From the NCBI RefSeq assembly GCF_057098645.1, contig NZ_CM169472.1: a stretch of 64,000 nt of DNA. One strand, written 5' to 3'. This document shows, in pieces, positions 36,001-39,000 of this stretch (position 1 is its first letter; every line of letters starts with the position of its first letter). The position numbers are program-made.

Positions 36001-39000
36001 CCCGCTTGATGTTGATGAAATGGTTATCGCTGCCCGTCAGGTGGAGCGGGAAACGGGTAAACCTGTACGCATGATTATTCTGGATACGCTGGCGCGTTGC
36101 TTTGGTGGGAATGATGAAAATGATTCCCGTGATATGGGGGCGTTTATCCGTGGTTGTGACGAACTGAAACGACGCACAGGGGCCACGGTGCTGGTGGTTC
36201 ACCATTCCGGCAAGGATGAGACGAAAGGCGCGCGCGGTTCCAGTGCATTTCGTGCTTCGCTGGATGCTGAATACCGGATACGCAGGGAGGACGCAGGAAG
36301 CGAAGCGCTGGTTATCTCATGCACCAAAATGAAGGACGCGGAGGAACTCAAAGAAGCCGCATATGACTTACGCGTGGTGGAGCTTTTTACCGACGCTGAC
36401 GGTGAATTAATCACGTCGCTGGTGGTGGTGGATGATCCGCGCCCTCCTGTTGAACTGGAGCGCATCGAGGAGGCAGGGAACAAGACGGAAAACCATACCG
36501 CGCTATGGCAGTGCATCAGAACACGAACAGCACACGGGGAGGCGTGCACTATCGCCCTTCTCCGCGACGATATGAAAAAGCTGGGGTATGAGATGAAGCA
36601 CTTCCGGCGCTGGCTGTACAAGCTGGAAAATGATGGCGTAATCGTTATTGACGGTGATGACGTGCGCCCGCTGTAAAAAGTGGGGAGTAAAAGTGGGGAG
36701 AGCGGGGAATTTAACAAAATTGAAACATAATTACCCACTTTCCCACCTGTATATACCCAAAAAAGTGGGGAGTAAAAAATATATTGAAAAACATCACGTT
36801 AGAATCACAAAAAAAAGAGGTGGGGAGACGGTGGGTAATTTCAAAAAGTGGGGAGCAAAAGTGGGGAGTAGTGGGGAATGAACAGAAAAACCAGAGATAA
36901 GACAGCGCCAAAATATAAAGCGTTAGACATGACTGAGCACACCTTAAAGGTGGCAATCAGAACGATAGACCGCCACACGCGGGAAGGATACGCGAAGGAA
37001 CATCCCGACCTGATAAGCGCATTCATGACCACGGCGGCGGCAAACTTTGCCACGCTGACAGAACGGGAGATTGCCGAAGCGGAACAGGTAACAACCATCA
37101 ACGTTAAAACCGGAGAGGTGGAATTATGACGGCACAGATAGCCGCTTACGGGCGGCTGGTGGACGACCCGCAGGTAAAACAGACCAGCAAGGGCACACCG
37201 ATGACGCTGGCGCGTATGGCGGTATCTTTGCCATGCAGCCAGGCACAGGACGGACAGGCGACGTTATGGTTATCGGTCATCGCATTTGGCAAACAGGCCG
37301 ACTTCCTGGCTAAACATCAAAAAGGCGATGTTGCCAGCGTATCCGGCACGATGCAGGTCAGCCAGTGGACCGGACAGAACGGAGAAACGCGGCAGGGCTG
37401 GCAGGTTATCGCAGACAGCGTAATCAGTGCCCGCGCGGCACGTCCAGGCGGGAACAGACGCAAAACCACAGGCACACAGGGTAATCAGCCACCAGCGGGA
37501 GGCGATGACCCTTACGGTGATGATATTTCGTTCTGAGGGGGTGACGATGGTACATGACCGCATAGCGGAGGAACTGGAGGCGAAAGGCTTTTACCGGAGG
37601 GCGGCGGCGCGATGGGGTGAAGTCATGCAGCTGGTGGAGACAGACAAGGAACGGCATCATATCACGATGCGACGGCTGGAATGTTCCAGGAAGGCACAGA
37701 GGCCACCGGAGCCGCCGGATAATTACGGAGACCTGAAAAAGGCGGTCGATCGCACTTATGCCGAAATGGGTATGGATGGTGCTGGTGATGAAATATGGCG
37801 AAATTACCAGGACAGATAATCACACAGCCGGAGCAATCCGGCTTTTTGTCATGTTTTGTAAATTATTTGTTCGTGGTTGTTCCACGTTGTTCACTGAGTG
37901 GATCGGCATATTTTACCCGAACTGAATCATGATTATTCTCGCCCGTGGTGCCAGGACGCTGGGGCCATTTTCCCGCCTGTTAATGTGCTCGCCAATATTC
38001 ATTACCAGGCGGGAAAACGATCGGTGCGATTACTGATTTCCTTATGAAAAACGGTTGAGTGTTTGCCGCGTCCTGGAGTTCCTTACTTAACCCCAGGACT
38101 TTTTTTTATGCCGAGAATAATCGAATTACGCCAGCAGAAAACCGCCATTAAAAATCAGATGCGCGACATGCTGGAGAACGCGGAAAAAGAAAACCGCAGC
38201 CTTAACGATGCAGAGGGCGCAAAATTTGACGAATTACGCGCTAAAGCTGAATCCCTCGATAAAGACATTTCCCGCCTTGAAGCCATTGCAGACGAAGAGC
38301 GCAGCAAGCCAGGTAAAAGCAGTCAGACCACTGACCCCGCAGAACTCCGCAACTACATTCTGACAGGTGAAACCCGCGCATTAAGTACAGGCGTTCCCGC
38401 TGATGGTGGTTATACCGTTATCCCTGAACTGAACACCGAAATCATGCGAATGCTGGCGGATGAATCCACCATGCGCCGCATCTGTACCGTGAAGAAAATC
38501 AGCAGCAACGAGTTTAAGCAGCTTGTTTCCGCTGGCGGTGCGACCGTTAACCACGGTGAAGAGGGTAAGGCACGCGAACAGACCAGCACCCCGCAGATTA
38601 ACGAGGTGAGCATCAAGCTGTATCCGGTCTATGCGTACCCGCGCACCACACAGGAAATCGTGGATTTTTCCGATGTGGACATCCTTTCATGGCTGACGGG
38701 TGAGATTGGCGACACCTTCACGGAAACCGAAGAAAGCGATCTGGTTGTGGGCGACGGTGACAAAAAAGCAAAAGGTTTTTTATCCGTACCCCGTGCAGAG
38801 AAGAACGACAAAGAGCGTGATTTTGGTACGTTGCAGGTAATTAAACCTTCCGAATCTCTGGCGTGGACATCTGCGGACCCGCTGATCGACCTGAAATTTG
38901 CATTACGTAAAAAATACCGCAAAAACGCGGTCTGGGTGGTTAACTCCACGACGGCGGCAAAACTTCAGAAGGTGAAGAACGCGAACGGTGATTATATCTG

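Follow-up and report, generated by a model that had tools for sequence, protein, structure and literature searches.

PerC of enteropathogenic Escherichia coli (EPEC), also called BfpW, is encoded on pEAF within the perABC operon, while its relative pchA is a moron beside the lysis genes of prophage Sp4. Another relative, pchE (ECs_1588 of E. coli O157 Sakai), lies on the prophage-like element Sp7, also known as O-island 51 (OI-51). Sp7 is the Sakai counterpart of EcCIEDL933, the prototype of those phage-inducible chromosomal islands (PICIs) that form capsids (cf-PICIs), whose architecture has been described (10.1101/2022.09.08.507074). PerC alleles on E. coli PICIs were noted by Fillol-Salom et al. 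2018 (PMC6092414), and PerC homologues on EcCIEDL933 and EcCICFT073 by the authors who studied EcCIMP1 (PMC11773190). EcCIMP1 is a classical PICI without capsid genes; its PerC-family gene EcCIMP1_025 (ISME J 2025), given as about 40% identical (PMC11773190), silences LEE1, which belongs to the LEE (locus of enterocyte effacement), in Citrobacter rodentium. Here, we compare with these systems the gene at positions 37547-37819 (plus strand) of a stretch of 64,000 nucleotides (hereafter the window, to which all coordinates refer) from contig NZ_CM169472.1 of RefSeq assembly GCF_057098645.1. It is near certain that this is a PchE-type gene of the PerC family residing on an EcCIEDL933-like cf-PICI.

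The perC gene and the element that carries it

The open reading frame (ORF) begins with ATG and encodes 90 amino acids followed by a stop codon. The initial annotation had placed the protein in the PerC family from a signature that it carries, and both parts of this statement are borne out: the signature reads LEAKGFYRRAAARW and stands at residues 10-23, and the Pfam model PF06069 (PerC) aligns over its full length, residues 1-89 with model positions 1-89 of 90 (147.2 bits, E = 1.7e-43; curated gathering cut-off, 22.6 bits). PHROG 994 is also matched, with an E-value of 8.5e-47. The PerC family is small, since a phmmer search, run exhaustively against 1.84 billion representative proteins, returned only 102 clusters at E <= 0.001. 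In an alignment of 52 family members drawn from this search, the near-invariant columns A7, L10, E11, G14, R17, R18, A19, A20, R22, W23, C46, M74 and G75 are all kept in the window protein. The ORF is a real gene on which purifying selection acts: 19 distinct alleles of 273 nt from related satellites have a median dN/dS of 0.25 (ratio of means, 0.30). Allelic variation falls mostly after residue 28, and the first 27 residues are almost invariant. A variant of 82 amino acids with a different C-terminal end recurs in seven cf-PICI loci on viral contigs (L061-L063, L065, L067, L080 and L086).

To which subgroup of the family does the gene belong? Its product is 88-89% identical over 90 amino acids to PchE, from which it differs at about 10 of the 90 residues, mostly after residue 28. 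It is 99% identical to the copy on a second O157 cf-PICI (inserted in tqsA) and 96% identical to that on a classical PICI of O157/DEC4E, while its identity to PchA and to the EPEC PerC of pMAR7 is 43% in each case. The location, between ssb and the head genes on an OI-51/Sp7-like element, is also the one expected of a group 3 Pch; RefSeq names the Sakai gene at the same position pchE (ECs_1588), and the gene order is common to the window, Sakai Sp7 and more than 40 related viral contigs. Thus, from its identities and its position the gene is a group 3, or PchE-type, Pch.

The window gene resembles PchE of Sp7 in the length of the product, in the ORF and ssb upstream, in the terminator behind it and in the HK97-type capsid module downstream; the two elements differ in that a RepA-type helicase is encoded in the window and a DUF927 primase in Sp7. 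With the LEE1 activators EPEC PerC and PchA/B/C, the latter encoded on lambdoid prophages of EHEC, the window protein shares the Pfam family and the N-terminal signature LExxG[LF][YW]RRAAxRW...C. The settings are different: an operon with perA and perB in EPEC, a moron in Sp4, and a satellite replication operon here. Of 5,426 complete E. coli genomes, 973 hold similar DNA, and the product name in RefSeq is 'PerC family transcriptional regulator'. The gene type has thus already been named (pchE) and studied experimentally, RefSeq has a product name for it, and its location on PICIs has been published. What was recognised in the window, correctly, is one copy of a gene type known from the literature, on a satellite whose family is likewise known, and no new biology follows from the identification itself.

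The immediate surroundings of the gene are as follows.

36878-37129, plus strand: ORF of 83 amino acids, the first gene of an orf83-ssb-perC block, its stop overlapping the start of ssb
37126-37536, plus strand: ssb, directly upstream of perC (Pfam SSB, E = 1.7e-16)
37535-37541, plus strand: Shine-Dalgarno-like GAGGGGG, read from the sequence, overlapping the ssb stop and ending 5 nt before the perC ATG
37826-37848, plus strand: intrinsic terminator found by a terminator scan, with a 7-bp G+C stem, a GCAA loop and T5

The 83-residue product had no match in the Pfam search, and homologues of it are encoded upstream of ssb at almost every related locus. perC starts 10 nt past the ssb stop codon, a promoter scan detected no sigma-70-like promoter between the two genes, and a terminator (-13.2 kcal/mol, z -4.4) follows; these features make perC the final cistron of the early, or replication, block. 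Sakai Sp7 and the tqsA element of O157 have kept its Shine-Dalgarno site. The terminator is also where the early module borders on the late one. Homology to a classical PICI ends at 37847, and many genomes match at about 98% through ssb and perC, with the match ending exactly at this nucleotide.

The satellite as a whole, and its genes other than those above, are listed next.

31111-45451 (approximate), plus strand: cf-PICI of about 14.3 kb, delimited by the ends of homology to O157 elements and E. coli genomes
31286-32515, plus strand: tyrosine integrase, 100% identical to the Sakai Sp7 integrase (tblastn; RefSeq annotation)
32880-33068, plus strand: alpA, the PICI master activator, excisionase-type (Pfam Phage_AlpA, E = 5.4e-17), 100% identical to O157 elements
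34980-35279, plus strand: RgdR homologue of 99 amino acids (Pfam DUF4222, E = 2.1e-23) with an RGD motif at residues 20-22
35276-36676, plus strand: RepA-like helicase, the replication gene (Pfam AAA_25, E = 7.8e-44)
38108-39265, plus strand: HK97-type major capsid protein, the first packaging gene (Pfam Phage_capsid, E = 1.6e-61)
39305-44448, plus strand: prohead protease, portal, two head-completion genes, HNH, TerS and TerL (ORFs; Pfam HNH, Terminase_4 and TerL; RefSeq annotation of O157 homologues)

The capsid protein is 99-100% identical to the capsids of O157 cf-PICIs, and the packaging proteins are 97-100% identical to those of Sp7. The RgdR homologue is 78% identical to ECs1581, and RefSeq calls the homologue of the helicase 'helicase RepA family protein'. 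Neither ORFs nor Pfam domains revealed a tail or lysis gene within the element, and an Rfam scan of the satellite gave nothing credible. In its size, its integrase, alpA and replication genes, its head and packaging set and its lack of tail and lysis genes, the element agrees with the definition of a cf-PICI (10-15 kb). Therefore, the initial annotation was right in locating the gene on a satellite, adjoining the capsid operon: it sits between ssb and the HK97-type capsid gene. For EcCIEDL933, induction by a helper via alpA and packaging in its own small capsids have been demonstrated (10.1101/2022.09.08.507074).

Candidate functions of the PchE-type protein

What does a PchE-type protein do? 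AlphaFold2, run with the family alignment, predicted helices at residues 5-13, 16-29, 33-50 and 60-73 in a model of good confidence (pLDDT 85.8). The predicted fold is all-helical and resembles tetratricopeptide repeats (TPR), and no DNA-binding fold was recognised in the model. A sequence search of the PDB found no solved relative of PerC, only weak noise of the coiled-coil or BAR type. In the literature, group 1 Pch activate LEE1 solely by relieving the silencing exerted by H-NS, StpA, Hha and YdgT, and they lower the binding of H-NS (PMC4764244). When PchE is over-expressed, csgD and curli are repressed in a ler-independent manner (PMC6265319), and flagella and motility increase (PMC7369912). 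Uninduced, its gene shows a basal expression, which falls upon SOS induction (PMC6265319, PMC5931665).

The explanation to which we lean is that the window gene encodes a PchE-type regulator, small, helical and TPR-like in its model, that would act by contacts with other proteins. The partners are probably H-NS-type nucleoprotein complexes and/or AraC-type regulators, by analogy with group 1 Pch and with relatives resembling the ANR family. The output would likely be that of PchE, with csgD and curli repressed, flagella and motility increased, and ler raised at most less than 2-fold. The protein might then be a host-directed accessory regulator which travels with the PICI replication module, neither a master activator of the LEE nor a dedicated activator of the capsid operon. 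A TPR-like fold without DNA-binding motif fits such a mode of protein contact, as in the anti-silencing of H-NS by Pch. On balance, this explanation as a whole, from the PchE type and the protein contacts to the shift between curli and flagella and the weak effect, if any, on ler, seems to us somewhat more probable than not.

Several points weigh against it. The functional data come from PchE, an orthologue that differs from the window allele at about 10 of 90 residues, most of them in the C-terminal third, and the PchE phenotypes were obtained mainly by over-expression from plasmids. The mechanism through H-NS was established for group 1 Pch, which are 43% identical, and not for PchE. Absence of a DNA-binding fold is itself weak evidence, because small helical bundles match TPR folds non-specifically. 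Finally, the order of genes around perC, described below, is kept down to 37% identity of PerC, which fits a role in the life cycle of satellites better than a purely host-directed accessory gene.

A rather doubtful alternative is that the protein works as an anti-activator of the ANR type, which binds and inhibits an AraC-family activator and/or H-NS and is hence a repressor, as has been proposed for EcCIMP1_025. Residues 7-52 align with positions 9-54 of the 54 in the ANR model (NCBIfam NF033650; 20.4 bits, E = 3.3e-4), that is, the N-terminal 50 or so residues cover nearly the whole model of this Aar-like family, whose members are likewise small and helical. Sub-threshold matches of this kind are found in 40 of the 52 family members, at 18-27 bits and a best E-value of 5e-7. 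Moreover, natural PerC proteins of 57-75 amino acids consist of the N-terminal domain only, a plasmid-borne PerC gene stands divergent from a gene for a helix-turn-helix regulator, the TPR-like fold of the model suits protein contacts, and EcCIMP1_025 represses LEE1, for which its authors propose an ANR-like action (PMC11773190). However, the curated cut-off of NF033650 is 32 bits, which neither the window protein nor any other member reaches (27 bits at most). The 90-residue protein also has an extra conserved C-terminal helix outside the 54-position model, and a Pfam scan of the proteins of the satellite found no AraC-family partner gene.

Another possibility is that PerC is a core component of the life cycle of enterobacterial PICIs and that effects on the LEE are side effects; we give it little weight. 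With as much reserve, it may be imagined that PerC, made at the end of the replication operon, remodels complexes of nucleoid proteins or regulators. It might in this way, again as a tentative proposal, permit whichever late module follows, capsid-forming or capsid-redirecting, or else tune the host for the spread of the satellite. The appeal of these proposals lies in gene order. DUF4222, primase, in some cases ProQ, then SSB and PerC recur in this sequence in classical PICIs and in several other genera of Enterobacterales, and the synteny is found even at a locus whose PerC is 37% identical. The adjacency of ssb and perC is kept in E. coli cf-PICIs, in classical PICIs and in other genera. 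Judged from these gene orders, perC is a gene that tracks the replication module. The family is confined to Enterobacterales and is present in Pantoea, Erwinia, Rahnella and Klebsiella, which have no LEE, so that LEE control cannot be its general purpose; a role in the life cycle would explain why the order of DUF4222, primase, SSB and PerC survives to 37% identity in such LEE-less genera. Isolated phages rarely carry the family, as tblastn against 50,697 phage records yielded five weak matches in all. The linkage to the replication module is old and widespread.

Some further arrangements were seen among the related loci. In the classical PICIs by ligB, gmk and spoT (L047-L050), a ProQ/FinO-domain protein is encoded between SSB and PerC, and a phage protein of the antiterminator Q family about 2 kb downstream of PerC; the order ProQ, SSB and PerC is also seen in L115. 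A short metagenomic contig (L112, positions 463-1050) has tandem PerC-family genes of 97 and 95 amino acids. PerC genes of plasmids were considered as part of conjugative leading regions beside ssb, but the two plasmids inspected had mosaic contexts rich in insertion sequences, and the idea was dropped.

The capsid-operon leader and the LEE

The position of perC, the last early gene and directly upstream of the late operon with a terminator between, invites the proposal, an alternative offered in the initial annotation, of a late regulator of the satellite's own: PerC, as the end product of the early operon driven by AlpA, would switch on or de-silence the downstream capsid and packaging operon. 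Between the perC terminator and the capsid gene lies a region with the following features.

37849-38107, plus strand: conserved control or leader region ahead of the capsid genes, almost unchanged between cf-PICIs that differ by about 8% in perC
37855-37870, plus strand: TTTGTAAATTATTTGT
37867-37892, plus strand: three TTGTTC in 10-bp phase
37968-38017, plus strand: long hairpin (-24 kcal/mol, z -6.3)
38070-38107, plus strand: hairpin followed by U8 (-14.1 kcal/mol), covering the Shine-Dalgarno site of the capsid gene

This leader is more conserved than perC and the flanking genes, and its RNA fold has an overall z of -3.9. In the conserved 260 nt before the capsid gene no consensus sigma-70 promoter was detected, a point in favour of the proposal. 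Over-expression of alpA alone is reported to suffice for the production of EcCIEDL933 capsids, which leaves the island and the host as the possible sources of a late activator. All cf-PICI loci of the E. coli type whose upstream sequence is long enough have perC or a remnant of it, and the synteny of the replication module down to 37% PerC identity speaks in the same direction. The hairpin-rich leader, too, is found in loci with PerC, including L098, and is absent from the PerC-less loci L096, L099 and L100.

Nevertheless, a dedicated activator of the capsid operon is unlikely from a comparison of the loci. In a classical PICI of O157 at the Sp7 site, with an unrelated upstream region, an ssb-perC pair of 98% identity is joined after the terminator to a lambda-like module for capsid, decoration protein and TerS. 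Conversely, the divergent cf-PICIs L096, L099 and L100 (capsids 66-70% identical) have neither perC nor ssb, L099 and L100 in 5 kb of upstream sequence and L096 in the approximately 740 nt available upstream of its capsid gene; such PerC-less loci are few and phylogenetically distant, which bears on all arguments from their comparison. The motif TTTGTAAATTAT, upstream of the capsid gene, occurs both in cf-PICI loci that have perC and in others that lack it, and since L096 and L100 keep it at the same place, it tracks the capsid module and not perC. Two E. coli cf-PICIs (L059 and L068) have lost an intact ssb-perC, and their capsid genes are still 99-100% identical. The expression of pchE, basal without induction and falling on SOS induction (PMC6265319), weighs on the same side, as does the lack of a DNA-binding fold in the predicted structure. 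Silencing of the late region by H-NS was considered on the basis of low G+C and was ruled out as a hint: the region has 48-58% G+C, is not AT-rich, and is thus no obvious target of H-NS.

In position, as a small protein encoded before the morphogenetic genes of a P4-like or PICI-type satellite, PerC is reminiscent of Delta of P4 and Ogr of P2. Those two belong to the zinc-finger proteins and have a Cys4 motif. The window protein differs from them in having a single cysteine, C46, and a predicted TPR-like helical fold.

The three TTGTTC repeats were considered as an operator for PerC and rejected, as they are confined to cf-PICI loci and are missing from classical PICIs with the same PerC as well as from some cf-PICI loci. 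In L098, whose capsid is 69% identical, both stems of the leader are kept with changed loops, a hint that the late operon is controlled by attenuation, by antitermination or at the level of translation. Many related islands have a small unannotated gene of 74-91 amino acids, similar to ECs_1589, between perC and the capsid operon (L002, positions 8170-8394; L053, positions 9821-10045; just upstream of the capsid gene in L098 and L099, of which L099 is PerC-less). Sp7 has this gene, ECs_1589 (74 amino acids), between pchE and the capsid gene, flanked in Sakai by two copies of the perC terminator, and the window element is without it, as though a deletion between the repeats had removed it.

Does the gene control the LEE? 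The initial annotation had proposed activation of ler, and for the PchE subgroup this did not find support. The activity of a ler reporter was 3,001 Miller units with PchE and 1,577 in the control, a small but significant rise of less than 2-fold, and it was 7,783-12,513 with PchA/B/C, a rise of 4-fold or more (PMC5931665). Groups 2 and 3 Pch are dispensable for the expression of ler and espA and for adherence, and LEE1-lacZ is unaffected by them (results of Iyoda 2004 and of Porter 2005, quoted after PMC6265319 and PMC11773190). Among PICI genes, EcCIMP1_025 silences LEE1, and LEE1 fusions did not respond to those PerC genes that EcCIEDL933 and EcCICFT073 carry (PMC11773190). It is therefore very improbable that the window protein is a true activator of the LEE, in the manner of EPEC PerC or PchA/B/C, through which satellite carriage raises ler in an effector-bearing strain: the common Pfam family and N-terminal signature, the slight rise of the ler reporter with PchE and an effector gene in the window (see below) would suit it, but the protein is only 43% identical to PerC and PchA, the effect of groups 2 and 3 on LEE1-lacZ is nil by these second-hand reports, the activation of type III secretion (T3S) by OI-51 was assigned to another gene by deletion mapping, and the same gene type is common in genera without LEE.

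That other gene is ecs1581, which encodes RgdR. Deletion of OI-51 lowers T3S and the colonisation of sheep, an effect mapped to ecs1581, and RgdR activates LEE1 and T3S, represses motility and raises Congo-red binding (PMC3378721). The suggestion that carriage of the satellite is linked to virulence regulation thus holds for the satellite family as published, with the correction that the link runs through RgdR and not through PerC (PMC3378721). RgdR and PchE, encoded on the same island in one direction of transcription, have roughly opposite published outputs: T3S and Congo-red binding up and motility down with RgdR, curli down and motility up with PchE. Carriage of the island may therefore set the balance of adhesion and motility in attaching and effacing pathogens.

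Flanks and neighbouring genes

The two flanks of the satellite correspond to different insertion sites. The left one (28599-31110) is pepT/roxA, the site of Sp7/OI-51, and the right one (45452-47559) is a 3' remnant of tqsA followed by ydgV-mdtJ-mdtI-ydgD, the tqsA site. Both flanks are collinear in none of the 5,426 complete E. coli genomes, in which matches span either 1-16448 or 2112-18501 of the query. This suggests, from the arrangement of the matches, either a chromosomal inversion by recombination between two cf-PICI copies or a chimera of the assembly.

Upstream of the satellite, the window has an effector-like gene (15698-18046, plus strand) for a protein of 782 amino acids with SopA-like HECT-type catalytic and pentapeptide domains, resembling the T3S effectors NleL and EspX7; this SopA/NleL-type gene in the same window agrees with the remark in the initial annotation that the genome carries T3S effectors. 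It is followed by a gene for a DUF4765 protein of 1,133 amino acids (18637-22038, plus strand). Both genes lie downstream of apparent prophage tail genes, as judged by ORF sizes alone, and the DUF4765 gene is followed by an IS3-family transposase gene at 22581-23486.

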